From positions 120,001 to 152,000 of the forward strand of contig NC_014537.1 of the NCBI RefSeq assembly GCF_000148385.1: DNA of 32,000 bases. Reading direction: 5' to 3'. Origin of the DNA: Vulcanisaeta distributa DSM 14429. Its GTDB lineage: Archaea > Thermoproteota > Thermoprotei > Thermoproteales > Thermocladiaceae. Positions 5,909-25,743 of this stretch are shown piece by piece (position 1 is the stretch's first letter; the number at the start of each line of letters is the position of its first letter). Below the pieces are notes generated by a model. The model saw nothing but the letters and a program-made list of their open reading frames with translations. It was not told the DNA's origin and searched no databases. A program made the translations under genes and the position numbers.

Positions 5909-7285
5909 TTAGCCCGGGTTTTGTTGCTTGGTGCATTGGATTCCGTAGTTCGTTAATTCAGCGCAGTACCGCCTAAACCTCCTGTCGAATAGCACGACGT
6001 CGATAACCTCATTGGGCATTAACCTGCCTATTGCCTGTACGGTCTTCATGACCACTAGGTCGGTGCTCCTTAAGCCCCTCGCCTCAAGCCTCCTCATTAC
6101 ATTGCTTGGTAGTAGGGGGAGTGTGAGGAGTACGGCCCTCCTATAGCAGTTGAGCCTAACACCCTCGGCGAACCTACCGAAGAACCTCAGGACGAGGTTC
6201 CTCCTGCATACATCCTCCCTCCTAACCTCATCCTCATAAACCGCATTCTCGATCAAGACCTCCTTACTACTCGTAGTGAAAATCACCGTCAAAGCACCAT
6301 CACTCAACAAGTCATTGACTTGCCTAGCGACTTCACTCTTAAGTCTCTCTACATTCTCTGTGGTCATGACCACACTCCCTAACCTAGCCCTAACTAATTG
6401 GCTAGGCTCTACCCTAACAACAGGTATTGAGGTTAGTATTGATGGTGGTAGGGTTGCCGACATCAAGAGCACCCTCTTATTGCTCGGCAACTCCAACCCC
6501 TCAAACCTAACACCCACCAGTGCGTCGCTGTCCTGGTCGTAGTATGTAATTGATGACTCAATGAATGCCACCAGGTCATCCATACTAACTATTTCATTGA
6601 CCTCACCATCCATCGCCATTGCAGGTAAGAGCTCACTCAAAACACCCCTAACAAGCTCCGCGCTCCTAACATCCAAGTCCTCAACCCCAAGCCTACCGAG
6701 GAGTAGCTCAACACCCCTCCTGGAAAGGCTGACGAGCTTTGGAATAACTGCATTATGCGCTTCATCAATGATTACACCGCCTACTTTCCCAGCGTACTTC
6801 CCCAGCCTGCTGTAGTTCATAAGCACGACGATGTCATCATACCTACCCAGTAACTCCCTGATCAGCGCCTCCTGGACGTTGTACGGGCATAACCGGCCCT
6901 GCTCAGCCAAATCCCTAACCTCGGCGTAGTCCGAGGCGTTGATTAACGCCTTGACCAGGGGAACCGGCTTATTGAGTTGGCAGAACCCACAGGGCCTCCT
7001 AACAACAAAGTCACTGTGCCTAAAGCCCCTGGTACAAAGCCTCTCCCTACCAGTCGATAGGAAGTGCCTAACGCCGAACTCACCCAAGGCCCTACTCGCC
7101 TGGGCCAGGGCGTTGATTAGGCTTGATGCCCAGACCCACTTACCGCCCAACTGCCTTATTACGTATGATGCCACGTAGCTCTTACCCCAACCGGTTGGGG
7201 CTTGAAGACCAACAATACCCCTCTCCCTAAGTAGAGCCAGTAATTTATTCGCCACATCCAATTGATCACTCCTCAGGTTAGCCAT
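5909..7285 (-). CDS. XPD/Rad3/DinG-family superfamily-2 helicase with a 4Fe-4S Cys cluster (compact, 458 aa)
   Basis: Motif I LQAPTGWGKS and motif II VIIDEAHN. Four Cys arranged C-x16-C-x2-C-x~33-CPY between motifs I and II, as in XPD FeS domains. Also LLMSATLPP, FAEGVRL...LPLLP and QAIGRL...LFDRRF. Confidence 0.8.
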   Translation of the reverse strand: MANLRSDQLDVANKLLALLRERGIVGLQAPTGWGKSYVASYVIRQLGGKWVWASSLINALAQASRALGEFGVRHFLSTGRERLCTRGFRHSDFVVRRPCGFCQLNKPVPLVKALINASDYAEVRDLAEQGRLCPYNVQEALIRELLGRYDDIVVLMNYSRLGKYAGKVGGVIIDEAHNAVIPKLVSLSRRGVELLLGRLGVEDLDVRSAELVRGVLSELLPAMAMDGEVNEIVSMDDLVAFIESSITYYDQDSDALVGVRFEGLELPSNKRVLLMSATLPPSILTSIPVVRVEPSQLVRARLGSVVMTTENVERLKSEVARQVNDLLSDGALTVIFTTSSKEVLIENAVYEDEVRREDVCRRNLVLRFFGRFAEGVRLNCYRRAVLLTLPLLPSNVMRRLEARGLRSTDLVVMKTVQAIGRLMPNEVIDVVLFDRRFRRYCAELTNYGIQCTKQQNPG

Positions 7286-8237: not shown

Positions 8238-8747
8238 TTAGTAGAGCTTGACCCTGCATGGTATTGACCCTCTATACCTATTGGCTAGGTCCCTATCCGC
8301 GTTGTAGCCCGAGGCCCTCAGCATTGCGTGGATTGCATATGACGCCTTCGGCCTTCCCATCCTCACCCAATTCCTGGCCACGATATTTAGTACTCCGTGT
8401 AAGTAAGCAATGTTCCTAATAATGCCCTCGGCACCCACAGCCTTAAACGGCGTTATGTGGGGGTCGGCGTTGACGACTTTGAAGGCATACCTCGGAATCC
8501 CAACTCTCCCCAGGAGGTGCGTTACCAGTGCCATGTAGTGGCTTGGGTACGCGGTCAAGGGTTTAATGCCCTGCCTAATTAAGTCTGTGAGTCCATGTAA
8601 GTCCTCCACACTAATGACTGCATGTTTAATGCTACTTACGGCAATTGCACAGTCATCCATGTCAACGTCAGCAACGCCAACCACGGCCTTACCGCAGAAT
8701 AACAACTCCCTAGGCTCTATGTAGAAGGCTAGGGCCTCCCAACGCAT
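8238..8747 (-). CDS. hypothetical protein
   Basis: 169-aa ORF with an ATG start. It overlaps the upstream ATPase gene by 19 nt, which suggests translational coupling. Confidence 0.6.
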   Translation of the reverse strand: MRWEALAFYIEPRELLFCGKAVVGVADVDMDDCAIAVSSIKHAVISVEDLHGLTDLIRQGIKPLTAYPSHYMALVTHLLGRVGIPRYAFKVVNADPHITPFKAVGAEGIIRNIAYLHGVLNIVARNWVRMGRPKASYAIHAMLRASGYNADRDLANRYRGSIPCRVKLY

Positions 8748-10066
8748 TCCCAGACACCCTCAAGCCTATCCTTCATCTTCGCATCAGTGAAGCCAGACTC
8801 CCTAATCACGTCGAGCCTAACTCCATGAGCCTCGGCGCATTTCCTAAGCGTTGTTGTGCCTGTCTTTGGCTTTATTGTTGGGTCTACCTCGACGGTTAGT
8901 AGGTTGTATGGCTCCCTGTGCTCGTTCCTCATTTGCCTGTTGGTTATGTGTATGTGCATGACGGCGGTCAGTGGGTTCTCCCAGTGTGCCGGTGGTATGG
9001 CGCTCCAGGTCTTCTCTGCATTGTAGTACACGTCCCTACCATAGTGGGCCTTGAAGCCAGGCTCCCTGAAGATTATGTTCTCGGGGTTGAAGTACAGTGT
9101 TGGGAACTCAATGAATAGCTTATTCATGCTTATGAACTCCCTGGGTATGTCGAATGGGCTTTGGGTGATTAGGGCGAAGTACCTCCCGTAGTTCCTACCA
9201 ACCCTGACACTGGTTGTCAACGTCGACTCACCAAGCCTGAAGTATAGGTGGGCCTCATCAATCACAAGGATCAGGTCCCTGGCCTGCATGGAGTTCAGTA
9301 TAGCCAGGAGCGACAGCACGTAGAACCAACGCTGGACCGGCGAGAACCAGCTTAGGTCAATGCCTATGGATTTACCCCTCAACCCACCATTGATTAAGCG
9401 ATTAATCAGTGGGTGGGTCCTACCAAAGAGCCAGTGGTTGAAGTAGGTGAGCCTCCTAATCAAGCCCCTGGCGCTGTTAACCTCGTCCTCCCTAGCCAAG
9501 GCACCGCCACTGACCAAGTCATTGAGGTGCTTAATCAACCCACTAATCGATACCTCACCAACAGCCCTGCCCCTATCGGAAACGGCCTGCGGTATAGGTT
9601 GATTGCCCAATTGATCGTCTGCCTGGCCAGTTAATTCGCCGTAAGCCCTCATGAACATGTACTCCATCGCAGGGGTCATTACGTAGGGCAGTCTCGGGAA
9701 CCTCATGGTGAGGACCTCCTCAATCACATCCAAAGCCTCAATATCACTCAGGTAATCCAGCGGGTTTAGTGGGTACGGCGCGTAGTAGTCGGTGTAGCCC
9801 TCGTAGGTGCCGGCGGCGTCGAAGACCACGACCGCGTAGTCGCAGGGCACGCTCATCAGGGCATTCTTAATGAGCGTGGTCTTCCCAGTCCCAATTGAGC
9901 CGAAGATCAGTGCATGCGTCTCATCAAGGACCATGAAGTGGAATAGGTGCCTAGCCGGGTCATTAATCATGTCCCTAAGGCTCGGCCTGCACGGGTCATC
10001 CCGACCAGCAGAACCCACTTGACCAACCTGCTGGTTAATCCGCCCTTGTCTCCTTATGAACATCAC
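8729..10066 (-). CDS. HerA/VirB4/TraG-type (DUF87-like) P-loop NTPase, soluble
   Basis: Walker A IFGSIGTGKTT, Walker B LILVIDEAHLYF, and ALITQSP. No TM segment. An ATG at 10063 is an alternative start. Confidence 0.75.
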   Translation of the reverse strand: MMFIRRQGRINQQVGQVGSAGRDDPCRPSLRDMINDPARHLFHFMVLDETHALIFGSIGTGKTTLIKNALMSVPCDYAVVVFDAAGTYEGYTDYYAPYPLNPLDYLSDIEALDVIEEVLTMRFPRLPYVMTPAMEYMFMRAYGELTGQADDQLGNQPIPQAVSDRGRAVGEVSISGLIKHLNDLVSGGALAREDEVNSARGLIRRLTYFNHWLFGRTHPLINRLINGGLRGKSIGIDLSWFSPVQRWFYVLSLLAILNSMQARDLILVIDEAHLYFRLGESTLTTSVRVGRNYGRYFALITQSPFDIPREFISMNKLFIEFPTLYFNPENIIFREPGFKAHYGRDVYYNAEKTWSAIPPAHWENPLTAVMHIHITNRQMRNEHREPYNLLTVEVDPTIKPKTGTTTLRKCAEAHGVRLDVIRESGFTDAKMKDRLEGVWECVGRP

Positions 10067-10924: not shown

Positions 10925-13900
10925 TCACTTATTAGGCTGGTCACCCACGTACCTCCCCAAGCCATCAATGAGGGCCTCAGCAACCACCACGGCCTCCATC
11001 AAGTTCACCACCTTAAGCCCAAGTTCCGCATCCCTAAACTCATTAATTATCCTGCCCAGTGAGTCCCTTAGGGCGTTTATTGAGGACCTCAACAGCTGTA
11101 TCCTGAGGTCGACGGCGCCGGTGTGGGAGAGGGCGTTGAGTGCGTTGTTGACGGCGCCCAAGGCACTCCCATAAATCGCCAACCTCCTCCTCAACTCACC
11201 AACCTCCCCACTCAGCTCCTCAGCCCCACCAAGACCCCCACTACCCACTAAATCACTTAACTTAGCCTCCAAGTCCCTAAGCCTACCCCTCAGCTCATCA
11301 ACCTCACTACTCAACCTACTCGCCAAGCCCCTCAGCATTACCTCAGCCTCGCCAACCGCGTAGTCCCTTACCTGACTCAGCACTTCAATCGCCAGCCTCG
11401 GTGGCATGTACCTGGCCAGCAAGTGCCTAAGCCCATCATCACTGATTGAGTCCACTCCAATAAACCCACCCCTAACGTGCTTAGCCTGGTCGCTACTCAG
11501 GACGAGACCCCACAGGTCTTTATGGAACTCCCTAAAGACGTCACTGTTCGGCTTAGCCATCGACGCCTTGATTACGAGGTCCCTGGCCACACCCTCGACA
11601 GACTCCATGTCAACAAACCCATCCTCGTGAAGCGCCCTCAAAGCCCTTGCCAAGGCCTTCAGCTCGCCTGGCCCAATCCTAAGCCTACCATACTCCTCAC
11701 TGAATGACTGCCACTCAATGGCCCTGTTAACGTCGACACCCAACTCACTGAGTAGCTCCAGTAGGGCAACCAGCGGCTGCTTGCGGATTGAGTCCGCGTA
11801 GTCGATTAGGCCTATTACCGAAGCCCTACCGCCAACGCTCAACCTATTAATCACACCATCCCTAGCGGTCACCGCAAGGTGCAACCTAACGACGGAGTCT
11901 ACGAGGAGGTCACTCCTCACAATCGAGGCAATCCTGGGGAATACCTCACTAAATGACTTATCACCAACCAACGCATCAACACCATGCCTAAGCAACCCAC
12001 CATACTCCCCCATAAACCTCCCAAACTCCATAAACCCCCTGACCTGCTCCCTAACCCACCCTCCATAATTAACATTCCTGAGGAACTCACCAATAGCCAT
12101 TGGTAGGGCCTCCTTAACGGCGGCCCCCCAAGCCCTCGACTCAAGGGCCTCCCTGAACCTAGCCCCAACGAATGGGCTTAGGGCCTTCGTGAGCTCCCTA
12201 ACACTGAGCCTGTTAATGATCATCAAATCCTCACTACTTGCACCACCGCTCAACGCCTTGTTAATGCGCTCGGTGTGCCTAACCCACCAGCTATTAATCA
12301 CCTCAATTGCCTTGGCATCATCCCTAAACGCCTCAAGGAGTGGCTTGAGGACGTCACGGCTTAGGGCCACGCCACCCCTAAGGTTATGGAGGGCGTCAAT
12401 GATTAGCTTAACATCGCCCCTGGCTAACTCCCTAACCTGCCTATCCCTCATGTGCTTGGACATTAACTCCCTAGCCCTGTTGCCCAGGGCTTTGTCTAGG
12501 AGCTCCCTGGCCCTACCATGCTCAACACCCATTAATTGGCTTAGCTCAACAAGCCTATGGAGTTCACCGTTAATTAGGGCATTGATCACACCCTTAACCT
12601 CACTAAGCCTCCTAATGCCAGTTAATGCCTTGCCGTGGAGCTCCCTAACGTACGGAGTTAGGGCGATGGCCAACAACCTAGCCGAGTCAAGCCTTGAGTT
12701 CTTAACGACCAAGCCCTTACCCCCACCAAGCCAGTACTTACTAACTAAAGACTCCATCAAACCCCTAAGCCTCGGGTCTTTGACAGCCTTAACCTCAAAG
12801 GGCCTTGGCATACTCAAGGATGCAAAGGCGTCCTCCACAGCCCTCTTGATGCCAATCCTCCTGGCAACAGCCCTAGTCACCAGGTGGGCCGGCAGGTCAT
12901 CCCCAGCCCCACCACCGCGGCTGTAAACCCTCCTATCCAGTACGGCACCACCCCTAAACCTAAGCCCAACAACCTCATGAAGCCTACCCCTCATCCCAGC
13001 CTCCCTCCATATTGGGTACTCCCCAACAAACGAAGCCACACCCGCGCCAACCCTGGCCAGCCCAGCCAAGGCACGCCTATGCCGCTGCCCATAAACCACC
13101 GCCTTACCCCTAAGCATGCTCTCCACATCCTCCATCGCGGCACTCACCGGCCTAGCCAGTGGGCTTGGGTCCCAGGGGCTCGGTAGGTGGCGGCTCAGCC
13201 TACGCCAGGCTGGGTGGTTAGGCCTAGAACCCCTCAACGCACTGACCGCCTTAGCGAATTCATGGTGTATAACCATCAACGGCCCAACAACCCCACCAAG
13301 CCTCCCACCTCTACGCATCCTCAATGCGACGCCCTCCCTAAGCCCCCTAACCCTCGAAGCCACTGACGACCTAACCCTCCTAAAAAGCCTACCAAGGACT
13401 CTGCTAACGCCAGCAACCCTTAGGTAGAGTATTAGGGATAGGTCCATGACCACGTTGCTCAGTACCGACCATGCTGGGCTTAGTGGTGTTGGGAGGTTGG
13501 CGATCCACATTGCCGCATCCAATAAGCCGAGTATTGCGACGGCTTCAGCGAGCCACTTGGGTATGAAGTAGCCGACACCGAGTAGCAAGCCGTTGAAGTA
13601 TGACCAGCCGGTGAGTAGTCTTTGGGAGCCAACCACCATGGAGTTTATGACCCAGGTGGTGCTCGGCGTCAAGCCTATTGGGTCCGTGCCGAACCATGGG
13701 TTGTTTATGTTGCCGATTATCGTTATTACCCCCGGCACCGTCACCGTCTCATTGGAGTGATTGATACATGTTACCGTGATCTCCACCTGGCTATACCCAA
13801 CCGGCTCCGGGTTTGGAAGTGCCAGGCTGAGGTTCCTACCCATTCCCGTGATCTCCCTGCCGATGGTTACCTCCTCATTGATCTTACTGACTAGGTCCCT

Positions 13901-15256
13901 TAGCTCACTCTCCTCATCGTTGATGCTCACCGTTCTGTAGAGTGTGCTGTTCAGCACCGAGTATTGGCATGTCGTTGAGTTTCCGACCCTGGTTGGCACG
14001 TTGATTAACGCATCGCCCGCGAAGTACCAAAGCGTTGCAGACGCCACCCCTGGAAAGCACTCCCCATGCGTCACGCCTGTCCTTGGGTTCGTCACGTTTA
14101 TGCACCGCATTGGTGGTACGTTGATTGTGAAGTTTATGGCTGCGGTGTTATTCCCATTAAGCACTGAGTACTTGCTTGGCGAATCAAGCCACTGCCAGGC
14201 GCCGGTGTAGAGGGTTGAGCCGTTTAGCGTTGCAGTTACTACGTTGAATGGTGGGTTGCCGAACTCAATGACCTCCGCGTAGGTGGCGTTACTGCTTAGG
14301 TAAGCCGCTGAGTCGCATGGCTCCGCAGTGCTTTGGTTGCCTGCGTAGGTTAGGAGTAGGCAGTCATGGCCTGGGTTTACCAGTAACCACAGGAATGTTG
14401 TGTTGGTTATCTCCGGAGTGCCGAAGGCATTAATTGGAGTCACAGACCCAGTGAATGCGGTGAAGCCACTCACTGGGTACTCAGTGAGTGCCACAGACCT
14501 GCCAATGACCGTGTAATTCACCCCATAGAGCACCCCACCGACCAAGTACGGGTACGGGCTGCCTAGGATCAAGAAGCCCCTGACCACGGCGTTAGGTGCG
14601 TTTTGGGTGAGCCAATTCATTAGGGCCGTGGTCTCATTCATTAATTGATTTTTCGAGGCAATCATCGCGTCTTTAGCCGCGATCGTTGTTATGAAGAGTA
14701 TGGTTAAGGTGACGATGAACAAAGCCGCGCCAGCCGCCCTAGTCCTATCCATGACCATCAAGGCCGCGGCGATGCCGATGACCAATGGGGCGATTGCGTA
14801 GCTGAACCAGGCCAGGTAGGCGATGGTGTGTAGCACAGCCGTCATAACCTGGGCGACATGCATCACTGCAAAGATTACGTCGGCGATTGGGTCGATGATG
14901 AAGCCAAGGCCCTGGATCACCGTGAACCCCTGAAGCGGGATTGCACCAATGCCGAGGGTGCTTATTACTGCTACCACATTGAGTACCGTCATGCCCACAG
15001 CCCAGGCAAGGCCTGCGTAGGCACTCGAGTAGTAGACCAGGGACCAATCACCAACCAAGCCCTCCACCTCACGGTAGAGGATTAAGTATGTCGGTGAGCC
15101 GGGGGGTGCAATGCCGAGTAATGTGGGTAGTGCATAGGCTAGGATTAAGGCAGTGCCGGCAGCAATGAACCTCCTAACCCCAACACCACCCCTAACCACC
15201 CCGTAAATCATTACCACCAAGCCCTCAATAAGTAATGCGTAGCCGAGTGGATCCAT
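10925..15256 (-). CDS. giant membrane protein: N-terminal polytopic domain, glycosylated ectodomain, further TM helices, then an ~850-aa helical / coiled-coil cytoplasmic domain
   Basis: 1444-aa ORF (ATG at 15256; the track uses TTG at 15259). About 6 TM helices in the first 200 aa. More than 12 N-x-S/T sequons between aa ~240 and 520. More TM helices near aa 560-620, then Arg/Leu/Glu-rich helical sequence. A TATA box lies 21 nt upstream. Confidence 0.8.
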   Translation of the reverse strand: MDPLGYALLIEGLVVMIYGVVRGGVGVRRFIAAGTALILAYALPTLLGIAPPGSPTYLILYREVEGLVGDWSLVYYSSAYAGLAWAVGMTVLNVVAVISTLGIGAIPLQGFTVIQGLGFIIDPIADVIFAVMHVAQVMTAVLHTIAYLAWFSYAIAPLVIGIAAALMVMDRTRAAGAALFIVTLTILFITTIAAKDAMIASKNQLMNETTALMNWLTQNAPNAVVRGFLILGSPYPYLVGGVLYGVNYTVIGRSVALTEYPVSGFTAFTGSVTPINAFGTPEITNTTFLWLLVNPGHDCLLLTYAGNQSTAEPCDSAAYLSSNATYAEVIEFGNPPFNVVTATLNGSTLYTGAWQWLDSPSKYSVLNGNNTAAINFTINVPPMRCINVTNPRTGVTHGECFPGVASATLWYFAGDALINVPTRVGNSTTCQYSVLNSTLYRTVSINDEESELRDLVSKINEEVTIGREITGMGRNLSLALPNPEPVGYSQVEITVTCINHSNETVTVPGVITIIGNINNPWFGTDPIGLTPSTTWVINSMVVGSQRLLTGWSYFNGLLLGVGYFIPKWLAEAVAILGLLDAAMWIANLPTPLSPAWSVLSNVVMDLSLILYLRVAGVSRVLGRLFRRVRSSVASRVRGLREGVALRMRRGGRLGGVVGPLMVIHHEFAKAVSALRGSRPNHPAWRRLSRHLPSPWDPSPLARPVSAAMEDVESMLRGKAVVYGQRHRRALAGLARVGAGVASFVGEYPIWREAGMRGRLHEVVGLRFRGGAVLDRRVYSRGGGAGDDLPAHLVTRAVARRIGIKRAVEDAFASLSMPRPFEVKAVKDPRLRGLMESLVSKYWLGGGKGLVVKNSRLDSARLLAIALTPYVRELHGKALTGIRRLSEVKGVINALINGELHRLVELSQLMGVEHGRARELLDKALGNRARELMSKHMRDRQVRELARGDVKLIIDALHNLRGGVALSRDVLKPLLEAFRDDAKAIEVINSWWVRHTERINKALSGGASSEDLMIINRLSVRELTKALSPFVGARFREALESRAWGAAVKEALPMAIGEFLRNVNYGGWVREQVRGFMEFGRFMGEYGGLLRHGVDALVGDKSFSEVFPRIASIVRSDLLVDSVVRLHLAVTARDGVINRLSVGGRASVIGLIDYADSIRKQPLVALLELLSELGVDVNRAIEWQSFSEEYGRLRIGPGELKALARALRALHEDGFVDMESVEGVARDLVIKASMAKPNSDVFREFHKDLWGLVLSSDQAKHVRGGFIGVDSISDDGLRHLLARYMPPRLAIEVLSQVRDYAVGEAEVMLRGLASRLSSEVDELRGRLRDLEAKLSDLVGSGGLGGAEELSGEVGELRRRLAIYGSALGAVNNALNALSHTGAVDLRIQLLRSSINALRDSLGRIINEFRDAELGLKVVNLMEAVVVAEALIDGLGRYVGDQPNK

Positions 15257-15276
15257 CAATTAATGAGGCAAGGCAA

Positions 15277-15284
15277 TTAATAAG
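15277..15284 (-). promoter_or_regulatory. TATA box (sense CTTATTAA) of the 1444-aa gene
   Basis: 21 nt from ATG 15256. Confidence 0.5.
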
Positions 15285-15321
15285 GCAACCAATGAAGGGA
15301 AACCACAGACAAGAAACAAAC

Positions 15322-16109
15322 CCTCCAATATTCCATTGAAATCTTCATACCTATCCTCATTCGCCGAATCAAGACTCCAGGCTGGGCTCTAACTTTCAAT
15401 ATTCTATTGAAATCTTCGCTACATAACCGTATGGGTGTGGGACTCTATGGCGGAAATGTACCTTTCAATATTCTATATGAAATCTTCTCCCTGATTGAGG
15501 TGAGGTATGAGTCAATGCCTGGCGATATAATACTTTCAATATTCTATTGAAATCTTCCGTTCCATATCATTGCCCTTTTCAACTTTGGCATCATGAGGAT
15601 CTTTCAATATTCTATTGAAATCTTCTGAGGATGGACTACAAATCAGGCTGTTCAAGGGAAGGAAGTACTTTCAATATTCTATTGAAATCTTCCAAATTGT
15701 GTGCTATAAAGTCGGGGAAGATGCATTTAATGGAGACCTTTCAATATTCTATTGAAATCTTCACAAGGATATAGAATAGTAAGGGCGAGTGAGGCATTAT
15801 TACAAAGGGCTTTCAATATTCTATTGAAATCTTCTGCGGAGATGAACGATGCAGGTGTGTGGCAGAAACGCTCAAGCTTTCAATATTCTATTGAAATCTT
15901 CGTGACTGGAGGCTTGCCTCGAGTGTTGGCTTGAGGGTTATCACCTTTCAATATTCTATTGAAATCTTCCCGGGGACGTACAACGGCACGGTCATGGTCG
16001 CCGGCTACCAAGCCTTTCAATATTCTATTGAAATCTTCCAGGGAAAGCATTGCTAATGTTTTTATCAGCGCATAATGGCATCGTCTTTCAATATTCTATT
16101 GAAATCTTC
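15322..16109 (-). CRISPR. CRISPR array with 12 repeats and 11 spacers; no cas genes in the window
   Basis: 25-bp repeat, plus strand CTTTCAATATTCTATTGAAATCTTC. Repeat starts: 15322 (degenerate, 3 mismatches), 15393, 15462 (1-nt insertion), 15533, 15601, 15668, 15738, 15810, 15877, 15945, 16014, 16085. Spacers are 42-47 bp and all unique. The minus-strand form GAAGATTTCAATAGAATATTGAAAG ends in ATTGAAAG. The degenerate repeat is at the low-coordinate end, while a TATA box and a non-coding leader are at the high-coordinate end. Confidence 0.95.
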
Positions 16110-16441
16110 CGGTGCGTTTGTTTATTTAGGTCTTTTTAAGTTTTTCTTCTTGGTGTTTTGGTGCCGTTGGAACGTCTTTCTGCTCTTAATTGCTGTGGCT
16201 CGTGCTTGTTTTCACGGTGTTTAAGTGGAATTGAATTGTTGTTCCCACGGAATTTCTACTCCGCCTAACCGAGCCTGTTCCAATGGTGTTTTATGCATTG
16301 TGAATTGGTGGGTGTGCATGGGACCATACACGCGGTGTGGTTTTGGGTCGTGTGTGGCTTGGTGAAAAACACTCCATGGGCTGTGCATGGTGCCGTGAAT
16401 TTTGCCCTGCCTTGGGTTCTTGGTTTCATGCCCTGAACCCT
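16110..16441 (-). promoter_or_regulatory. CRISPR leader region
   Basis: 332-bp non-coding tract between the ATPase stop (16442) and the first repeat. Strong G/T skew on the plus strand. The only ORF here (16221..16568) is His/Thr-rich and overlaps the ATPase gene. Confidence 0.6.
16132..16140 (-). promoter_or_regulatory. TATA box (sense CTTAAAAAG) driving the CRISPR array
   Basis: Its edge is 23 nt from the first repeat (16109). It belongs to the same box family as the gene promoters, so the predicted transcript starts at or next to the first repeat. Confidence 0.55.
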
Positions 16442-18532
16442 TCATTGTTGTGCTTCCTTGATTCTTGGTTCTAGTTCGATGATGCCCAGCCTCTTTATTG
16501 GCTCCGTTATTATGAGTGCCTTTGTGGTTAAGCCCTGCATGTGCGGTGGCAGTGCCGTTACCAACCACTTCATGTCCTCACTGGTCAACTGGAGGGCTTG
16601 GCTTACTGAGGCTACGTATGCGTCGTTCCCTCCTAACACGATGATTAGGGGTATGTTCTGAAGCACGTCACTCCCTATGCCAGTTAGTGTCTGGGTTATG
16701 AACACCGTGCCGAGGCCGAACTTCCTAACACCCCTAACCAGTAGCTCGGCTAGTGGTGAGTTTAGTAGGTAATAAGCCTCGTCTATGATGAGCAACTGCC
16801 GTAGTTGCTCACCTATGCTCATACTCATCACGTGGCTGTAGACGTGGTCAGCCACCACACCCATCATGAAAGCCATCACGTCCGGCGAAGCCCTAACCGA
16901 GCCGAACAATAGGGCCTTATTGTTTAGTAACTCACTGACCGGCACCACCTCGGCGCCCCTGAGGTGGCTCATTAATCGGTCGAGGGCTAGGGCCACCGAG
17001 TCATCGTCAGTGGCTGCCCTTAGGAACTCCATTGCCTTGAAGAAGTCCCTGTAAATGCCATTTGAGTATATCAACCTCAAGTCCGGCAGCATTGGCTTGG
17101 CGTCAATGCCGAGTATTGAGAATTCGGTAATGAGCCTATGAACCCTCTCAACATCAGTTAAGCCGTCAAGCTCGAAGAAATTAATGAATTTCCTAGTCAC
17201 GTCAATGGGCTCAATGCCCTGTATCCTCAGGTACTCACCGTGCGGGTCCAGGATGAGCGCCTTAATACCACTATTCATCAACCTGTGTAGGATTGTTGAT
17301 ACTGTCCAGGTCTTACCCATACCCGTTGGACCAACAACGAGCATGTGACCACTGGGCAACGCATCGAGGTCTATCTCCAACTCACTTCCCTCCCTATCCC
17401 TACCAAGCCTAACCCTAGCCCTCGAGGATTCGGCAATCAACCTGCCACCGTGGAATATGGGCACGATGGCTACGTCGTGGCTCAACTCATCGATTGTCGG
17501 CATTGACCAGAGTGGTAGCTGTCCCCTAAGCCAAGCCATGCGCATGTTCGTGTCGGGCAGGTCCCTATCACTAAGTATCATGACCCTCACAGGCTCCTCG
17601 GCGTTCTGGGTTATCCTATCAAGGACCACACGCCACCTACTGACTGCAGGCAGTGCCTTACCCCTCTCCTGGACAACGAGTTTTTCGTACTCCCTAGCCA
17701 CCCTAGTCGAGGTTACTGCACGGAACTCTGGATTACCCGAGATGATTAGTGCGTAGTTCTGTAGGTAATTAGCCACCGCCGACGCGACGGCCCTAACATC
17801 ATCATCGCTGGGCATTGTGTAGATTTTGTTCGAGGTAGCAAGCCTACGCCTCAGAACGCTAAATTGGCCACCTCTGATCACGGAGTAATTGCCTAGGCTT
17901 TTAACAGTGATTGCCGCGATTGCGGCGATAGTGATTAATCCATAAACCCTGAATAATAGGTATGAGGCAAGAAGTAGTGTTACCAACGCGGTAATGAGCC
18001 TAGCCTTGCTCGGCGTTGTTGGGAATCCAACCAACCTCCTAAGCTCCTCACCACCCAACTGCCTAAGCACGAAGTACTGCCTGAGTAGGTTCTCCCTGGC
18101 GGTTAGCCAGTTCATGAAGTCCTGGAGCTCGTCCTCGCCCCTAACAACCCTCGAAAGCCTAATGAACTTTTCACCACCAAGCCTAATGAATGCAATAGCC
18201 TCATTGGTGCCTAGGTTTAATCGCCTAATCAACTCATCGAACAAACCAACGTATTGAGCACCGGTCAATCGGCTTATGTCAAACATGGGCTCGGCACTGT
18301 AAAAGACATGCATCAACCTGCCCCTCGCATCATACACGTAGTCCTCACCGAGAACCAGCCTAGGCGCTAAGCCTGGGTAGATCAGCGTGAGGATTGACTC
18401 CACCAGCCACTCCCTAAAGTCCCGGTAAAGCATTGCCAGTGGTAGGAGTAGGATAAGTGGCCTGTAGACAATGCCCATTACAATGACTCCAATTAGGATT
18501 GCCAGGTAGATCCTTGGGTCTATCTCAGGCAT
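16442..18532 (-). CDS. membrane-anchored VirB4/VirD4/HerA-type (CedB/TedB-like) P-loop ATPase
   Basis: ATG at 18532 sits 21 nt from the TATA box (the track uses TTG at 18547). N-terminal TM helices (IYLAILIGVIVMGIV.., LITALVTLLLASYLLF..ITIAAIAAITV). Walker A VVGPTGMGKTWT, Walker B LLIIDEAYYL, and VFITQT. Confidence 0.8.
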   Translation of the reverse strand: MPEIDPRIYLAILIGVIVMGIVYRPLILLLPLAMLYRDFREWLVESILTLIYPGLAPRLVLGEDYVYDARGRLMHVFYSAEPMFDISRLTGAQYVGLFDELIRRLNLGTNEAIAFIRLGGEKFIRLSRVVRGEDELQDFMNWLTARENLLRQYFVLRQLGGEELRRLVGFPTTPSKARLITALVTLLLASYLLFRVYGLITIAAIAAITVKSLGNYSVIRGGQFSVLRRRLATSNKIYTMPSDDDVRAVASAVANYLQNYALIISGNPEFRAVTSTRVAREYEKLVVQERGKALPAVSRWRVVLDRITQNAEEPVRVMILSDRDLPDTNMRMAWLRGQLPLWSMPTIDELSHDVAIVPIFHGGRLIAESSRARVRLGRDREGSELEIDLDALPSGHMLVVGPTGMGKTWTVSTILHRLMNSGIKALILDPHGEYLRIQGIEPIDVTRKFINFFELDGLTDVERVHRLITEFSILGIDAKPMLPDLRLIYSNGIYRDFFKAMEFLRAATDDDSVALALDRLMSHLRGAEVVPVSELLNNKALLFGSVRASPDVMAFMMGVVADHVYSHVMSMSIGEQLRQLLIIDEAYYLLNSPLAELLVRGVRKFGLGTVFITQTLTGIGSDVLQNIPLIIVLGGNDAYVASVSQALQLTSEDMKWLVTALPPHMQGLTTKALIITEPIKRLGIIELEPRIKEAQQ

Positions 18533-18552
18533 CAATTTGATCGCCAACAGCC

Positions 18553-19889: not shown

Positions 19890-20567
19890 TCATAAGCACT
19901 TTACGTTATTCTTCATTGGAACTTTATTTCTACAGTAGGACTCTAGGCATGCCCTTATCACATCACCAAGTCTTGCATTACATTCAATTCCATTGGCATT
20001 CTCGGCGGCGGCCCTAAATTTTATGGTATTGTTTTCATCAACGTCAGATGCGCATTGACTAAAGAGTTGAGGTTGATTTATGTGATACCTTGCACACATA
20101 ACATTGCCTGGAGGGAATACGAGAATGTATTGTTTATTAACAAATTGGTTAATATTCTGACAGACACTATTCGGTTTAATGTTCCCTAACGGGCCCCAGG
20201 CTGGGACTAACCTAAAGAGTATTAATGATTCCCTACCAACAATGTTCGTACTCACGGGATCATTGGGTAAAGCCCAGGCAGCTGATGCGCCATGAAGTTC
20301 AATATTATTGTCACGTAAGACCCCAACCCAGCCAGTGGCATTCCTCGTAACGAACCTCTCACCAATGCGCCAGTGATACCTAACCTCAAGCCTGGCGCCA
20401 CATTGAATAACCGTGACGTTCTGGCCATAAAAGTTAATATCTAACTCATTACCTGTAATGCCTACTAATTTGAACTCAGGCTTAAGACGCGTAGAAACGA
20501 CATAGCCAACAATACCACCAACAAAGCCAACAATACCACTAATAAGCTCATTTAACCATGCACTCAT
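19890..20567 (-). CDS. secreted or membrane-anchored Cys-rich protein with an N-terminal LNELISGIVGF hydrophobic signal
   Basis: 225-aa ORF with a single N-terminal hydrophobic helix. Its N-terminal motif is shared with the 257-aa ORF at 24638..25411. Confidence 0.65.
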   Translation of the reverse strand: MSAWLNELISGIVGFVGGIVGYVVSTRLKPEFKLVGITGNELDINFYGQNVTVIQCGARLEVRYHWRIGERFVTRNATGWVGVLRDNNIELHGASAAWALPNDPVSTNIVGRESLILFRLVPAWGPLGNIKPNSVCQNINQFVNKQYILVFPPGNVMCARYHINQPQLFSQCASDVDENNTIKFRAAAENANGIECNARLGDVIRACLESYCRNKVPMKNNVKCL

Positions 20568-20623: not shown

Positions 20624-21442
20624 TCATGATAGGCTTATTGATCCTGTTAGTAATGCCTTTGCTTGCCTTGTTAGTGTGTTGGTTATTGTTTCTATGGCCT
20701 TCTTGAATTGTGTTAGTGAGCCCTTTGGTTCGTATAGTACTGCGGGCTTCATTGTGGCTGTTAGGTACTGCGCAATGGGGCTTGTTGGTACTGTGAATAC
20801 CTCGCCGTTGTGTGCGTAGCCCCTGACCCTGCTCTCCACGGAGTCTAGGCTGGGTAGTGCCTTGTTTAGGATTACGTTGATTATCTTCCTATATCTGAGC
20901 TGGGTTATCATTGGCTGTATGTACGTGTCATCAATCTCCCTAAGCACATACTCACTATACGCCGCGTGGTCAAGGACTATGTTTATTATCTGCGACGTAA
21001 CCAACGCCGGTATTAGAATGGGCATTGGGGCGTTTGCGGGTAGGTCAATGAGGACTAACTGCGAGCCTGTGGCCATCACCAGCGAATTCACCAGGTAAAC
21101 CCACCTATTGAAGGATTCATTGACACCCAGCGTCAATTGGTAGGACTTGACACTGCCCGGGGGTACCACGAGTACGCTGGGCATGTACGTCGACCTACTA
21201 ACCAGTTGGTTAACATCACTCACAGCCCCAACTAGGAAGTCCAGCGCGCCCCGTCTCTCGGGGACAATGCCCAGGGTCCTACTGGACGTCTGGCTTGAGT
21301 CGATGCCGAGGTCGATCAGTAATACGTTAGCCCTAAGTGATTGGCTCATGGTTATCGCAAGGTTGGCGGCCAACGTACTCTTCCCAGTCCCACCCTTACT
21401 CCCACTGAAGAATGCCATCACGGCATACCTAGGCCTAAGCAT
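20624..21442 (-). CDS. ParA/MinD-family ATPase (TadZ/FlhG-like position in the pilus operon)
   Basis: Deviant Walker A FFSGSKGGTGKST. The ATG at 21442 overlaps the upstream stop (ATGA). Confidence 0.85.
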   Translation of the reverse strand: MLRPRYAVMAFFSGSKGGTGKSTLAANLAITMSQSLRANVLLIDLGIDSSQTSSRTLGIVPERRGALDFLVGAVSDVNQLVSRSTYMPSVLVVPPGSVKSYQLTLGVNESFNRWVYLVNSLVMATGSQLVLIDLPANAPMPILIPALVTSQIINIVLDHAAYSEYVLREIDDTYIQPMITQLRYRKIINVILNKALPSLDSVESRVRGYAHNGEVFTVPTSPIAQYLTATMKPAVLYEPKGSLTQFKKAIETITNTLTRQAKALLTGSISLS

Positions 21443-23004
21443 CAATTACCACCCTCATTGGCTTTAAAAGCCTCAGAGTCTAGGCTGAGCAACTCATCGG
21501 GCAGGGGCAGCGGCTTAACCTCGCCGCTGAACTGCTCCGTATTAACCTCGGCAGTCACATCCACAGCCTTAAGGACTGCCTCAGGCTGTTTGTAAAATAC
21601 GTAGAGCAGGCCGGCCAACTGCTCATGATCTATGTTCGCATTGACGGCCTTGGTTAGGAACGCGGTCCTAAGCTCTAACTGCCTACTCACGTAATCCGGG
21701 CCGTAATCCTTAACAAGGGCGTTCATGTAAGGCTCAGTGTTGTGAATCCTCCTAACAAACCTCCTGGTGACAACCTCATAGACCCCCGTCTCCGGGTTGA
21801 ACCTAACGTCCCTACTCATGCCAACCTCAACAACCACCGACAGCTTCAGTAACTCCTCGGCCTCCAGGCCCATGTTTGCCAGCCTAACCTCGGCTGCCCT
21901 GTAGTCCTCCGCGTGGAATGTGGTCAATGCGCCGTGGCCTAGGGTCACAGCCTCGGCCAAGGCCCTGAACTCATCCCTCGACCTAGCCTCATTTAGGACT
22001 ATGACGTCGACTCCGGACCTAAGGGCCTGCCTAATCAACTCAGCCTTATCAATGCCCCTAATCCCATGCGCATAAGCCACCCTCTCAAACATCGGCTTAA
22101 CCACCTGGTGGTGAGGCAGGAAGAGCTCAGCCACATCCATTATCAATGCCATGGACTTTGTGACCAGCATGAAGGCGACTGCGTTCTGCAGGCTCGTCTT
22201 GCCACTCCCCATGGGCCCAGTTATCAGTATGGGCACCTTATGATCAGCCAGGAGCCACAGCCTTGCCGAGTCCTCAATACCAATCATCCCACGCCTAATC
22301 AACTCGGGGAGTGTCCATGGCCTCCTAGGAAGAACCCTAATACTCATTGAGCCCGGGCTCACCGGCTCACTCTCGGCACTAACCCTAACACCGAATTCAG
22401 GATCCACGACAGAGGCTACCGGGTTGTACGTCGTTATTGCGGTCCTAGTCCTCTGGGCCACGCGCCTCATTAGGTAGTCGATGAATGCGTTGAGGTCGAA
22501 GGTGATGGTTTTGACAGCCTTCCCACTCCTCCTCACCTCGTAGGGCTCCCAACCAATGATCACCTGGACCCTACCCAGTAGGGCATGCTCTATGTAGACC
22601 CCACCAAGCCCAAACCTGGTGTTGGCCTTGTTTATGTGTATGTCCGTCACATCATCCATGAGGAGCAGCGGCGTCAACGCACCGTAGTAATTAAACCACC
22701 TATTGAAGACCTTAACAGCCAAGTCAACACTCTCCCTACTTGGCTTAACACCAATCATCCTTAGGCCCCTCTCCACAGCCCTCTCAAGCCTCACCCCACT
22801 GCCGAACCAATCAACGATCCTATCCAGTGGTAGGGCAATTAACCAGTCAGGCACATCATCAATCACGTAAGCCACGTAGTCGTGGACACCATACTGACTG
22901 GACTGAATGAGGTGAACCTCAACGTCAGTCCTAATACCGCCAAACTCAATGATTTGGTGCCTCACCAAGCCCTGGCTAATGACCCTAGGCCTTGACACGT
23001 GCAT
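21442..23004 (-). CDS. type IV pilus / type II/IV secretion family ATPase (FlaI/TadA/VirB11-like)
   Basis: Walker A ILITGPMGSGKTS, Walker B and Glu VDVIVLNEARSRDE, His box TLGHGALTTFHA. I chose the ATG at 23004; the track uses TTG at 23016. Confidence 0.9.
   Translation of the reverse strand: MHVSRPRVISQGLVRHQIIEFGGIRTDVEVHLIQSSQYGVHDYVAYVIDDVPDWLIALPLDRIVDWFGSGVRLERAVERGLRMIGVKPSRESVDLAVKVFNRWFNYYGALTPLLLMDDVTDIHINKANTRFGLGGVYIEHALLGRVQVIIGWEPYEVRRSGKAVKTITFDLNAFIDYLMRRVAQRTRTAITTYNPVASVVDPEFGVRVSAESEPVSPGSMSIRVLPRRPWTLPELIRRGMIGIEDSARLWLLADHKVPILITGPMGSGKTSLQNAVAFMLVTKSMALIMDVAELFLPHHQVVKPMFERVAYAHGIRGIDKAELIRQALRSGVDVIVLNEARSRDEFRALAEAVTLGHGALTTFHAEDYRAAEVRLANMGLEAEELLKLSVVVEVGMSRDVRFNPETGVYEVVTRRFVRRIHNTEPYMNALVKDYGPDYVSRQLELRTAFLTKAVNANIDHEQLAGLLYVFYKQPEAVLKAVDVTAEVNTEQFSGEVKPLPLPDELLSLDSEAFKANEGGN
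21463..21470 (-). promoter_or_regulatory. TATA-like box inside the 3' end of the ATPase gene
   Basis: GGCTTTAAAAGCC, 21 nt from ATG 21442. Possible internal promoter. Confidence 0.35.
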
Positions 23005-23009
23005 GCGGA

Positions 23010-24125
23010 TCACCAAATGAGCGGTATCAACGGCGCCAAGAATATCGGTACCAGGCTGATGCCGAGGCCCACTGAGTGCATCGCCTTACCAACCAGGATG
23101 GACGTGGTTATGGCCAGAGGCATCAACGTGGCATTGACTAGCTGCGGGTCTAGGCTGATGGGCATGCCTAAGCCCGTTATCGCCGTGGCGTGTATGCCGG
23201 CCAGTACGTAGGCTGTGAACACCATGAATGCGTAGCCCACGGCAATGAAGGGCCCGTAGATGAAGCCCATCATTACCGAACGCCTGATGAAGTCTATTAG
23301 TGAGTCGACAACCATGTTCACACGCTCAACAAACTCCCTAACACCAACGCCATATGCATAGTCCCAGAGCGGCTTGAGATCTCGCTCGACCACGGTCAGC
23401 GGCCTTGGTGGTTGTGGGTTTGGTACCGTGAGTAGGTCATTGAATGAGCTCAAAACCCTCTGGGGAAGCCCCAGGTAATTCGCCACGAACCTAATGAACT
23501 GAGGCATGTACAAAACGGCGAAGCCAACGCCGAAGCCCAGGGCGGTTATAAACCAAAGCCTCGTGGCGCCCAGGCCCACTAGGTAATTGCCCAGTGTGAA
23601 TGCCGTTAAACCACCGATTAAGCCTGCCATCGCTGGCTTGGTGTAGTCGTACCTAACTAGCTCCACCTGGTAGTGGTGGATGATTGGTAATAGGGCGATG
23701 CCTATTATGGATACTGTGGGCGGTGCACCGAGTATTGCCATGAAGGATGCTACACCGAGCATTACCGCAATGATGATCACGGCAGTCAACGCCTTACCCT
23801 GCCAATCAAGCTGCTGGTTAAGCCAATTACTGAACTTGCTCATCAACGCCAAAAACGTGATTGATGGATCACTACCGGCGGTGAAGTAGGAGTTGGCTAT
23901 GCTGAGGAGCTCCCTCCTAAAACCCCTGGGTAGGGCCCATGGGTTGTTGAAGGCCCTCATCACAGTGGCTATCCTACGCCAAGCCCTACTGAGCTTAGCA
24001 CTCTCGTTAACCGCATTATCAACCCCATCCACCGGGGCCCTAACTATGAAGACTAAGTCGGCAACAACCTCCCCAACATCCATCAAGAGGACAATAAACA
24101 GGCATTTTAAGGGGGAATTAACCAA
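23010..24125 (-). CDS. TadC/FlaJ/GspF-like pilus platform membrane protein
   Basis: 371-aa ORF with a two-fold pattern of soluble helical segment followed by a TM cluster. It sits immediately upstream of the ATPase. The start is uncertain: TTG at 24125 or ATG at 24083. Confidence 0.7.
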   Translation of the reverse strand: MVNSPLKCLFIVLLMDVGEVVADLVFIVRAPVDGVDNAVNESAKLSRAWRRIATVMRAFNNPWALPRGFRRELLSIANSYFTAGSDPSITFLALMSKFSNWLNQQLDWQGKALTAVIIIAVMLGVASFMAILGAPPTVSIIGIALLPIIHHYQVELVRYDYTKPAMAGLIGGLTAFTLGNYLVGLGATRLWFITALGFGVGFAVLYMPQFIRFVANYLGLPQRVLSSFNDLLTVPNPQPPRPLTVVERDLKPLWDYAYGVGVREFVERVNMVVDSLIDFIRRSVMMGFIYGPFIAVGYAFMVFTAYVLAGIHATAITGLGMPISLDPQLVNATLMPLAITTSILVGKAMHSVGLGISLVPIFLAPLIPLIW

Positions 24126-24163
24126 TGATTTTGATTTTTAACGTCTTCACCGTTTTAACGAGT

Positions 24164-24604
24164 TCATGAGACCGCCGCGGTGTATGTGCCGCTGCTTGTT
24201 ATCACGGCTACGCTTGTGACTTCATCAACCCCTGGGTTGCAGTTTGAGTAGGTTATTGTCAGTGTTTGGCCTGGCTTAAGCGTTATTGGTAAGCCGCCGC
24301 TCAACTGCTGGCCGTCTAGGTAGTACGTGGTTAATGAGCACGTTGCCTGGCCCTGCCCGGCATATAGGATTACGCTCTCAACCCTCAAACTCCCAACACC
24401 AGCATCCTTAATATTCACGAACAATACCCCACTACTCGTTGTTGCAGTCACCATTGGGGCATTCGCCATACCCAACGACCTACTCACACCTCCATACACC
24501 ACGTACATTACGACCAACGCCATGACCATACCCACTAAGGTAACCACAAGCCAAAGCACAGTAAACTCACCACCCCTAGCCCTACTCTCCACCTTAGTGC
24601 TCAT
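24164..24604 (-). CDS. pilin-like protein (class III signal peptide-like N-terminus)
   Basis: ATG at 24604 is 21 nt from the TATA box. The sequence MSTKVESRARG/GEFTVLWLVVTLVGMVMALVV is followed by a beta-rich, Thr/Ser-rich domain. Confidence 0.65.
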   Translation of the reverse strand: MSTKVESRARGGEFTVLWLVVTLVGMVMALVVMYVVYGGVSRSLGMANAPMVTATTSSGVLFVNIKDAGVGSLRVESVILYAGQGQATCSLTTYYLDGQQLSGGLPITLKPGQTLTITYSNCNPGVDEVTSVAVITSSGTYTAAVS

Positions 24605-24624
24605 CAATAGCACTTATTGACTTA

Positions 24625-24632
24625 TTTTTAAG
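24625..24632 (-). promoter_or_regulatory. TATA box (sense CTTAAAAA)
   Basis: 21 nt from ATG 24604. Confidence 0.5.
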
Positions 24633-24637
24633 GGGTC

Positions 24638-25411
24638 TTAGCCATTACATTTCACGTGTATTGTTAGGTCTGTGTTTGGTGATGCGATTAACATGTATGT
24701 GAACTGAATGTAGTTTAGGCCCTCAGTCTTTGATAGGAGTATTGGCTGGACGCCCGGGCTAGTCTCAAGCCAGCATTCAAGTGGCGTAGTACTATTATTG
24801 TATGCCAGGTAGTAGTATCTATACGTAACCTCGATGAGTAATGGGCCGTAGGTGAATATGTCCTTAACAGCATATCCACCGAAGTATGGGTTATTACTCT
24901 CATCAAGTCCGATGGAGCCACTCACGCCCTTATTATCCCCGACACCAACCCAACTCACAGAACCCTCACTAAAGGGATCAACGATTAAGGTTATGTTAAC
25001 CCAGCCGGAGCCTGACGGTGCATCATCAATCATGGACCAACCGCTGGCCCTGGCTATCACGCACACTGAGGGCTTTATTGCGGAGCAAACCATGACTGCG
25101 CTAGGCAAATCACTGGCTTGGTAGAACCAGGCCTGGTCATGGTACAGCACGTTGCTCCTAACCTCGATATGAGAGCCATCACTAAGGAATATCGCCTTAA
25201 CGAAGAATGGCTCATGACCAGCGTTGACCACGGCCATGTAGTAACCACCCTCGTAGGGCACAACATCAACCACAGGCCATAGGTAGTTGGCTAGGACTTG
25301 ACTTTGTACGTATTGGTAATATCCGTAGATCACCCCTCCAACGGCCATGGCCATTATCACCATCGCAATTATAAAGCCAACAACCCCACTAAACAACTCA
25401 TCAAGGTTCAT
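24638..25411 (-). CDS. secreted or membrane-anchored protein with an N-terminal LDELFSGVVGF hydrophobic signal
   Basis: 257-aa ORF with a single N-terminal helix. The motif is paralogous to the N-terminus of the 225-aa ORF. Confidence 0.65.
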   Translation of the reverse strand: MNLDELFSGVVGFIIAMVIMAMAVGGVIYGYYQYVQSQVLANYLWPVVDVVPYEGGYYMAVVNAGHEPFFVKAIFLSDGSHIEVRSNVLYHDQAWFYQASDLPSAVMVCSAIKPSVCVIARASGWSMIDDAPSGSGWVNITLIVDPFSEGSVSWVGVGDNKGVSGSIGLDESNNPYFGGYAVKDIFTYGPLLIEVTYRYYYLAYNNSTTPLECWLETSPGVQPILLSKTEGLNYIQFTYMLIASPNTDLTIHVKCNG

Positions 25412-25431
25412 CAGTTAGAAGGCTTTACCCA

Positions 25432-25439
25432 CTTTTAAG
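25432..25439 (-). promoter_or_regulatory. TATA box (sense CTTAAAAG, preceded by CCCGC)
   Basis: 21 nt from ATG 25411. Confidence 0.5.
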
Positions 25440-25446
25440 GCGGGCA

Positions 25447-25743
25447 TTACTGACTACTTACCACGGTGTTGTTCATTGGAATTGATGGGCATGAGTAGTA
25501 GGTTATGTTGTAGTAGCCGTTATTTACTGTGTAGACTAGGCAGTAACCATCAAGCACAGGCCCATTACCACCCACCTGGGTAACCGGCTTCGGCGGCTCG
25601 TAACTACCCATCAAGCCAGCCCAACGAGCCCTATCAATCATTGACTTACCAAGGGACACGCTGATCGCGATTAAGCCGGTAACGGCAATAATCGCCAAAG
25701 CCACTATAACCGCGGTGGTCACTGAGGTTATGCCGGACTTCAT
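25447..25743 (-). CDS. archaeal type IV pilin-like protein
   Basis: From ATG 25743 the sequence is MKSG/ITSVTTAVIVALAIIAVTGLIAI, a short basic N-terminus followed by a long hydrophobic helix typical of class III signal peptides. The track start, GTG at 25767, is too close to the TATA box. Confidence 0.7.
   Translation of the reverse strand: MKSGITSVTTAVIVALAIIAVTGLIAISVSLGKSMIDRARWAGLMGSYEPPKPVTQVGGNGPVLDGYCLVYTVNNGYYNITYYSCPSIPMNNTVVSSQ

Follow-up and report, generated by a model that had tools for sequence, protein, structure and literature searches.

A cas-distant CRISPR array beside a VirB4-like gene of Vulcanisaeta distributa DSM 14429 is probably one of the ordinary arrays of its chromosome

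Why does a CRISPR array (short palindromic repeats, clustered and regularly interspaced) lie inside a cluster of DNA-transfer genes, between the gene for a VirB4-like ATPase and that for a giant membrane protein, with no cas gene at hand? The question is raised by a stretch of 32,000 nucleotides of the archaeon Vulcanisaeta distributa DSM 14429 (contig NC_014537.1, positions 120,001 to 152,000), which we call the window and in whose own numbering coordinates are given unless another locus is named. An initial annotation had described the array as Cas-less, with a hairpin-forming repeat and a promoter abutting its first repeat, and had suggested that it might belong to a mobile element and act in partitioning or in conflict between elements. 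The chromosome of this strain has 2,374,137 bp, a G+C content of 45.4% and 18 CRISPR loci, and no extrachromosomal element accompanies it (PMC3035369). The analysis reported here favours a plainer answer: the locus is very probably an ordinary chromosomal array of V. distributa DSM 14429, one of the 18 reported, served in trans by cas genes located elsewhere.

The array and the sequences that border it are the following.

15322 to 16109, minus strand: CRISPR array; the identical repeat also occurs at 16 loci in three other Vulcanisaeta genomes
15322 to 15346, minus strand: terminal, leader-distal repeat, degenerate, with three mismatches (GAAGATTTCAATGGAATATTGGAGG)
15462 to 15487, minus strand: repeat variant of 26 nt, with a 1-nt insertion and a broken palindrome
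15260 to 15321, minus strand: trailer of 62 bp, from the terminal repeat to the start of the giant gene (TTG at 15259 or ATG at 15256), read directly
16110 to 16441, minus strand: leader of 332 bp, between repeat 1 (16109) and 16442, where the VirB4/HerA-like gene has its stop codon
16132 to 16145, minus strand: TATA-like promoter element of the leader, AAAAACTTAAAAAG, 22 nt upstream of repeat 1
16365 to 16369, minus strand: T5 tract, 72-76 nt past the VirB4 stop codon, read directly

The array contains 12 repeats and 11 spacers and is found at the place, and with the unique 42-47-nt spacers, that had been described for it. The repeat unit has 25 nt and reads GAAGATTTCAATAGAATATTGAAAG on the minus strand. 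The count of 12 repeats holds, but they are not all identical, ten being perfect and two being the variants listed above. When matches to the repeat with up to three mismatches were counted, 11 were observed against 0 expected from dinucleotide-preserving shuffles. The locus thus shows what defines a CRISPR array, at least three near-identical direct repeats of 23-47 nt with regular unique spacers, together with a promoter-bearing leader on one side and a degenerate repeat at the opposite end. All the cues to orientation that had been listed, among them the leader on the VirB4 side and the degenerate distal repeat, are present and agree on a reading from the minus strand. No Rfam family was matched at the gathering threshold over the window, which means only that the array repeat lies outside the curated CRISPR-DR families. 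The TATA-like box of the giant gene, at about 15274-15284, lies in the trailer; as the trailer nowhere contains five or more T in succession, read-through from the array into that gene may occur.

The leader is of a type common in the genus. Some 250 nt beside repeat 1 (16110 to about 16360) have homologous counterparts in 14 other Vulcanisaeta leaders, and about 220-250 nt are 71-80% identical to the sequence beside nine other Vulcanisaeta arrays with the same repeat; the other 80-110 nt, which reach to the stop codon of VirB4, are specific to this locus. The box CTTAAAAAG at 16132-16140 (minus strand) is separated from repeat 1 by 22 nt, and not by 23 as first counted. A box of the form CTTA[A/T]AAAG is invariant in all 15 aligned Vulcanisaeta leaders, 22-23 nt before the first repeat, and stands at an equal distance in 19 metagenomic arrays adjacent to VirB4-like genes. 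Furthermore, the 13-mer AAAAACTTAAAAA of the leader is identical to the published CRISPR promoter of Pyrobaculum, where it was described as a "nearly invariant CRISPR promoter" for all 37 arrays of six species (PMC3396285). Since the box is common to all the aligned leaders and to Pyrobaculum, the promoter abutting repeat 1 is, to judge from its sequence, genuine but the standard of its family, and what had been put forward as a distinctive trait turns out to be the usual CRISPR promoter of Thermoproteales. Within the leader, the T5 tract is a possible archaeal oligo-T terminator for the VirB4-like gene. An open reading frame (ORF) of 115 amino acids at 16221-16568 (minus strand) spans the end of that gene and part of the leader; it is probably not a gene, because it matches no family and overlaps conserved leader sequence.

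The same repeat is also found in other genomes. When one genome per species was scanned, the exact repeat appeared at 16 loci or more, all of them in V. distributa JCM 11216 and in Vulcanisaeta sp. JCM 14467 and JCM 16159. Among the 100 ORFs that flank these arrays there are Cas families (Cas1, Csa1, DevR/Csa2, two Cas6, three RAMPs and Cas_APE2256) and also housekeeping genes (aconitase, adenylosuccinate synthetase, eIF-6 and seryl-tRNA synthetase). One array lies about 4 kb from Csa2 (L011) and two lie near RAMP genes (L004 and L009), while two others adjoin ABC and MFS transporter genes (L003 and L002). The neighbours being thus mixed, arrays with this repeat are scattered over the genomes and only some of them are adjacent to cas genes. 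The proposed check, a search for the repeat beside cas loci, was thus successful for genes of type I-A or type III, in three Vulcanisaeta genomes other than this one. In the same way the Cas-less state of the window array, correctly noted, is nothing special, as those three genomes have at least 16 arrays, both near to and far from cas genes, with the same repeat and a leader homologous to its own.

These observations allow a working scheme for the array, whose repeat can be placed in the crenarchaeal ATTGAAAG-type family used by type I-A and type III systems. With a family-standard leader, whose TATA-type promoter AAAAACTTAAAAAG precedes repeat 1 by 22 nt, transcription would start at or just before repeat 1 on the minus strand. 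Pyrobaculum CRISPR RNAs (crRNAs) start 8 nt before the spacer and so carry an 8-nt 5' handle (PMC3396285). From data on Thermoproteales and Sulfolobales, we expect that a Cas6 encoded in trans would cut each repeat to leave the 8-nt 5' handle AUUGAAAG, that the crRNAs would be loaded on type I-A and/or type III complexes of the host, and that its adaptation module would add new spacers at the leader end. The window spacers are shared with none of the other genomes, and ten perfect repeats with unique, unshared spacers are consistent with turnover. Taken together, the array is well preserved and probably functional.

The hairpin that had been singled out in the repeat has a real basis, an 8-bp palindrome (UUUCAAUA-GAA-UAUUGAAA) with a minimum free energy of -4.0 kcal/mol at 37 C. 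At growth temperature it is unstable: with the same parameters the free energy is about -0.2 kcal/mol at 60 C and +3.8 kcal/mol at 85 C, which is near the growth temperature. The related repeat GAATCTAAAACAGAAGAATTGAAGC, found at the same genomic position in metagenomic relatives, is unstructured, and the stem is broken by an indel in one of the array's own repeats (15462-15487). Furthermore, the Cas6 cut that gives the 8-nt AUUGAAAG handle would be expected to fall within the 3' arm of the stem, and not at its base. Because the stem is unstable when hot, the related repeat is unstructured, one copy is broken and the cut would lie inside the stem, there is no reason to class the repeat as structured.

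What, then, is the cluster in which the array is embedded? Between 28708 and 1756 every gene lies on the minus strand; the main genes of the cluster and its border are these.

16442 to 18532, minus strand: VirB4/HerA-like ATPase (TedB-like) of 696 amino acids, upstream neighbour of the array (Pfam DUF87, TrwB_AAD_bind, FtsK_SpoIIIE, matched at 16442-18547)
10925 to 15256, minus strand: giant membrane protein of 1443 amino acids, downstream neighbour of the array (V. moutnovskia orthologue VMUT_0998, 60% identity)
8729 to 10066, minus strand: TrwB/VirD4-like ATPase
20624 to 21445, minus strand: ParA/CbiA ATPase
21442 to 23016, minus strand: T2SSE ATPase
28754 to 29737, plus strand: RadA/Rad51 paralogue, divergent, at the border of the cluster

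The giant protein has six N-terminal transmembrane (TM) segments, a middle part rich in glycosylation motifs and a long helical C-terminus. The cluster also encodes several proteins with pilin-like N-termini and polytopic membrane proteins. The Ted DNA-exchange loci of Thermoproteales, Vulcanisaeta included, contain genes for TedB (VirB4-like), for ParA/VirC1-like and HerA-like proteins and for a recombinase (PMC9905601). A VirB4-like TedB, a ParA/VirC1-like ATPase and a recombinase gene are likewise found here in one locus, and candidates for TedC and TedA can be proposed by topology (a 137-amino-acid two-TM protein at 25791-26204 and a 293-amino-acid polytopic protein at 26223-27104). When TedC was searched for by sequence against PDB chains no match was found, so both stay candidates. 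The cluster resembles a chromosomal DNA-exchange system of the Ted kind, and since TedC is unconfirmed by sequence we name it only Ted-like.

Other features of the cluster can be added. A type IV pilus-like module at 21442-26204 (minus strand) comprises the T2SSE ATPase, a polytopic membrane protein of 371 amino acids and proteins of 149, 257 and 106 amino acids with pilin-like N-termini; the 137-amino-acid two-TM protein is also a possible VirB2/TedC-like pilin candidate. The 149-amino-acid protein gave only chance matches against PDB. A 21-bp tandem repeat of 1.9 copies lies at 20500-20539, inside a 225-amino-acid gene with a pilin-like N-terminus. Towards the left end, the G+C content, about 53%, drops to some 44% to the left of position 4000 or so (window 1-4700), and an intron-containing tRNA gene is located some 1.4 kb beyond that end (L101 5930-6027).

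Close relatives bear on the age of the array's address. Four of them keep the VirB4-like gene followed by the giant gene, and at this junction all four lack any array, solo repeat or remnant of a leader, so that the array, as regards this site, is not common to all related strains. The four junctions differ as follows.

Vulcanisaeta sp. JCM 14467 (L099): junction of about 110-200 bp
V. distributa JCM 11216 (L100): junction of about 780 bp
V. moutnovskia 768-28 (L102): junction of 5.8 kb with three ORFs
metagenome contig NODE_521 (L103): junction with a DUF1286 gene

The junction appears to be a variable spot, with the array as the DSM 14429 version of its content. The address would then reflect a lineage-specific insertion of a leader-plus-array module at a junction that varies in every relative examined. 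The three ORFs of the V. moutnovskia junction (L102 4466-9928) encode proteins of 362, 994 and 432 amino acids and match no Pfam family.

In the homologous cluster of JCM 11216 an array is located elsewhere, between the genes for the 149-amino-acid pilin-like and the 371-amino-acid membrane proteins and on the opposite strand. This arrangement of pilin gene, array, leader and 371-amino-acid gene exists in three copies, 77-88% identical and with different spacers (L010 4481-5581, L012 895-1845 and L013 3438-4313), which could be paralogous clusters or the product of a mixed or fragmented assembly. The order is also different in V. thermophila (L017), where a VirD4-like gene and a 173-amino-acid gene are followed by a giant gene of 1787 amino acids that overlaps the VirB4-like gene, with no array, and where the pilus/ParA module is missing. 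Because of this different order and missing module, a block with the giant and VirD4 genes and another with pilus, ParA and VirB4 genes may be separable modules.

Some results weigh against an ordinary array served in trans, and they are gathered here. One is that no Cas protein was found with Pfam, NCBIfam and PADLOC among the window ORFs, small intergenic ones included, nor is there a cas gene in the 1.7 kb further left; the absence of cas genes from the 32 kb, as initially reported, is thereby confirmed. The 839-amino-acid protein, which extends past the left end, has no Cas match, and a 458-amino-acid protein was rejected as a Cas candidate, as its PADLOC match to type IV-A DinG (E 2.8e-10) covers only the N-terminal helicase motifs, residues 5-178. 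The clusters of V. moutnovskia and JCM 14467 also encode this helicase-motif protein (5909-7285, minus strand), and in L019 and L024 it is found downstream of VirB4. A further point is that transcription of the array and processing of its crRNAs are predictions, drawn from the precedent of Pyrobaculum (PMC3396285).

The spacers weigh on the same side, as no protospacer was found for any of them in the collections searched. The comparison with viruses, plasmids and self that had been proposed was run on the collections and loci given below and gave no significant match. Against INPHARED (cultured phages and viruses of archaea) and PLSDB plasmids the whole array gave only chance matches by blastn (E of 0.2 or more). 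Seven scans of IMG/VR, made with 22-mers of S1-S7 of the 11 spacers and sensitive to exact matches only, gave no match. For self-targets, no spacer match was found in the window itself or in the fetched related loci; a 16-nt exact match of S3 in L013 did not extend (21 of 43) and was taken as chance. Vulcanisaeta viruses are poorly sampled, and this null result is silent on viruses missing from the collections. Since no protospacer was found, we infer the immunity function of the array from its family membership only.

The last such point concerns the address, which is met again in distant relatives. When metagenomes were scanned with a VirB4 alignment, 80 hot-spring loci of 52-62% identity were obtained, 60 of them informative in that they had a complete VirB4-like gene and at least 450 bp downstream. 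A k-mer array detector flagged 22 loci, of which two false positives (L019 and L055) were removed, and in the remaining 20 of the 60 (within L026-L088) a leader and array begin 194-233 bp past the VirB4-like stop codon. This recurrence hints that the address may not be purely accidental. It may go back to an ancestral array that was cleanly lost many times, or to capture on repeated occasions.

Of these 20 arrays, 19 are co-directional with the VirB4-like gene and have the repeat GAATCTA[A/G/T][A/T]ACAGAAGAATTGAAGC; in the 20th (L025 3105-4718) an array of 24 repeats has a different repeat type, CCTTCTACTCCCTTTAGGGAGATTC on the VirB4 strand, and apparently the opposite orientation. Loci with an array belong to at least three VirB4 clades, each of which also has loci without one. 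The upstream gene order is conserved in these metagenomic loci, and the contents downstream vary. Beyond the array, L026, L027 and L035 have Cas6, Cas_APE2256, two Csx1, an inverted second array and a Cas10/Cmr operon; L076, L077 and L080 have in that place an Eco57I-type methylase-endonuclease, a STAND NTPase and a C5-methylase; and in loci without an array the place is taken by restriction-modification genes, helicases, DprA or metabolic genes. With contents that change by locus from arrays and type III cas genes to restriction-modification, STAND or metabolic genes, the region 3' of the VirB4-like gene seems to behave as a variable, defence-rich island that often starts with an array. The VirB4-like genes themselves are unusually diverse: grouped at 95% amino-acid identity, those of 51 loci (L019-L098) from a handful of hot-spring metagenomes form 47 clusters. 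The RadA/Rad51 paralogue lies in these relatives inside the cluster, co-directional and between the 371-amino-acid gene and the ATPase (L026 5673-6641 and about 14 other loci).

Three other explanations of the locus can be set against this background. According to one, the cluster would be an integrated conjugative element carrying its own cas-less array as cargo, used with the Cas proteins of the host against rivals or as a partition site. Orphan arrays are indeed over-represented on plasmids (PMC9071438), such roles have been proposed for pNOB8 and pKEF9, and the cluster has VirB4-, VirD4-, VirB11- and ParA-like genes. In composition, only its G+C content, 50-56% where the genome has 45%, hints at a foreign origin, and a tRNA gene lies about 1.4 kb past the left end. 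The array at another position in three diverged copies of the JCM 11216 cluster and the great diversity of metagenomic VirB4 variants could be added on the same side. However, no integrase or replication family was found among the window ORFs with Pfam, NCBIfam and PADLOC, nor any att-like repeat of that tRNA in the window. V. moutnovskia keeps the order of the genes between 1756 and 19442, with 50-78% amino-acid identity, the VirB4-like gene is single-copy in both DSM 14429 and V. moutnovskia, and its protein has no relative in 72,556 PLSDB plasmids or in IMG/VR. For the window spacers, neither the phage and plasmid collections nor IMG/VR, scanned with S1-S7, gave a significant match, and when 290 unique spacers from 40 arrays were compared with 900 kb of related clusters, none matched non-array DNA, a pooled result that argues against a role in conflict between related elements. 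Moreover, leader and repeat are the host's own and not specific to an element, and the gene content fits the chromosomal Ted system with its TedB, ParA/VirC1-like, recombinase and HerA-like genes (PMC9905601). An array used as a ParA-dependent partition site was also considered and rejected, as this array has a full host leader, promoter and repeat and nothing ties it to the ParA-like gene 4.5 kb away. Neither hallmarks of an element within the window nor spacer targets were found that would place the array with those of the pNOB8/pKEF9 type. We consider the mobile origin first suggested very unlikely; the array is not shown to be part of a mobile element, and an orphan array beside transfer genes should not be read as evidence for one.

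The two remaining explanations take the neighbourhood as meaningful. The array might be kept beside the transfer ATPase so that output of crRNA is co-regulated with DNA exchange and imported DNA is screened. A leader and array directly after the VirB4-like gene and on its strand in 19 of the 60 loci, across at least three clades and with varied cargo beyond, speak for this, as do the same arrangement in the window and the lack of a strong oligo-T terminator between the array and the next gene. On the other hand, each such array appears to have a strong promoter of its own, a T5 tract follows the VirB4 gene, 40 of the 60 loci and the four closest relatives have no array, and the arrays of the JCM 11216 cluster are opposite in strand to the flanking genes. 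As the region after VirB4 also receives restriction-modification, STAND, helicase and metabolic genes, it looks like a general variable or defence island, and such coupling seems to us quite unlikely. Alternatively, the array could be a relic: a CRISPR-Cas locus would formerly have bordered the Ted-like cluster, and the array would be what is left of it, now isolated, no longer acquiring spacers and maybe unused. In favour of this, the VirB4-adjacent array is still followed by genes from Cas6 to Cas10/Cmr in three metagenomic loci, the window array shares position and strand with the arrays of 19 VirB4-adjacent loci, and it has a degenerate terminal repeat and an indel in one internal repeat. 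It is nevertheless unlikely, since the four closest relatives, having neither array nor leader remnant, would imply that an ancestral array was cleanly lost several times, leader and promoter are intact with ten perfect repeats, and dispersed cas-distant arrays are expressed in Pyrobaculum (PMC3396285).

Read as an ordinary chromosomal array, the locus adds one cas-distant array to a genome with 18 known, and its orientation cues, promoter box and missing cas genes are the norm in Thermoproteales. The only part that merits follow-up is the address beside the TedB-like gene, which is lineage-specific in close relatives and recurrent in distant ones. A variable region with an array first beside a Ted-like cluster is not reported in the Ted paper (PMC9905601), and it is possibly a defence island anchored to a DNA-exchange machine. 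That the 3' end of the TedB/VirB4-like gene is a preferred site for landing or retention of arrays and defence cargo in Vulcanisaeta-like Thermoproteales, with the linkage under selection, is an improbable proposal. If it were true, the window would be one instance of a Ted-CRISPR association so far undescribed, which could for example provide more crRNA while foreign DNA is imported.

Finally, the array can be compared with known systems. The CRISPR-2 arrays of E. coli are orphan arrays at a reproducible position by non-cas genes and are served in trans. The window array differs from such a fixed address in that its own is shared patchily, by 20 of 60 distant and none of four close relatives. 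The small CRISPR loci of the Sulfolobus plasmids pNOB8 and pKEF9 (PMC4390879) are likewise cas-less arrays linked to VirB4/VirD4-type genes in a crenarchaeon. They are found on demonstrated self-transmissible plasmids with integrases and their spacers match viruses, whereas the cluster in the window is chromosomal and syntenic between species, with no integrase found, a VirB4-like protein without a PLSDB relative and no spacer target found. The Ted system (Beltran et al. 2023, PMC9905601) has, like the window, VirB4-like, ParA/VirC1-like and HerA-like proteins, a recombinase of the RadA/'Rad50' type and membrane components; the paper makes no mention of CRISPR, and the window contains in addition a type IV pilus-like module and the 1443-amino-acid membrane protein, its TedC and TedA being unconfirmed by sequence. 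With regard to the dispersed arrays of Pyrobaculum (Bernick et al. 2012, PMC3396285), the window array belongs to another genus, has a Vulcanisaeta-specific repeat with an 8-bp A/U-rich palindrome, lies inside a DNA-transfer cluster and is known here from its sequence. Both have a repeat of 24-25 nt ending in ATTGAAAG and the AAAAACTTAAAAA promoter beside repeat 1, and in Pyrobaculum several arrays per genome are distant from cas genes and yet carry the same repeat and leader as the cas-adjacent ones.

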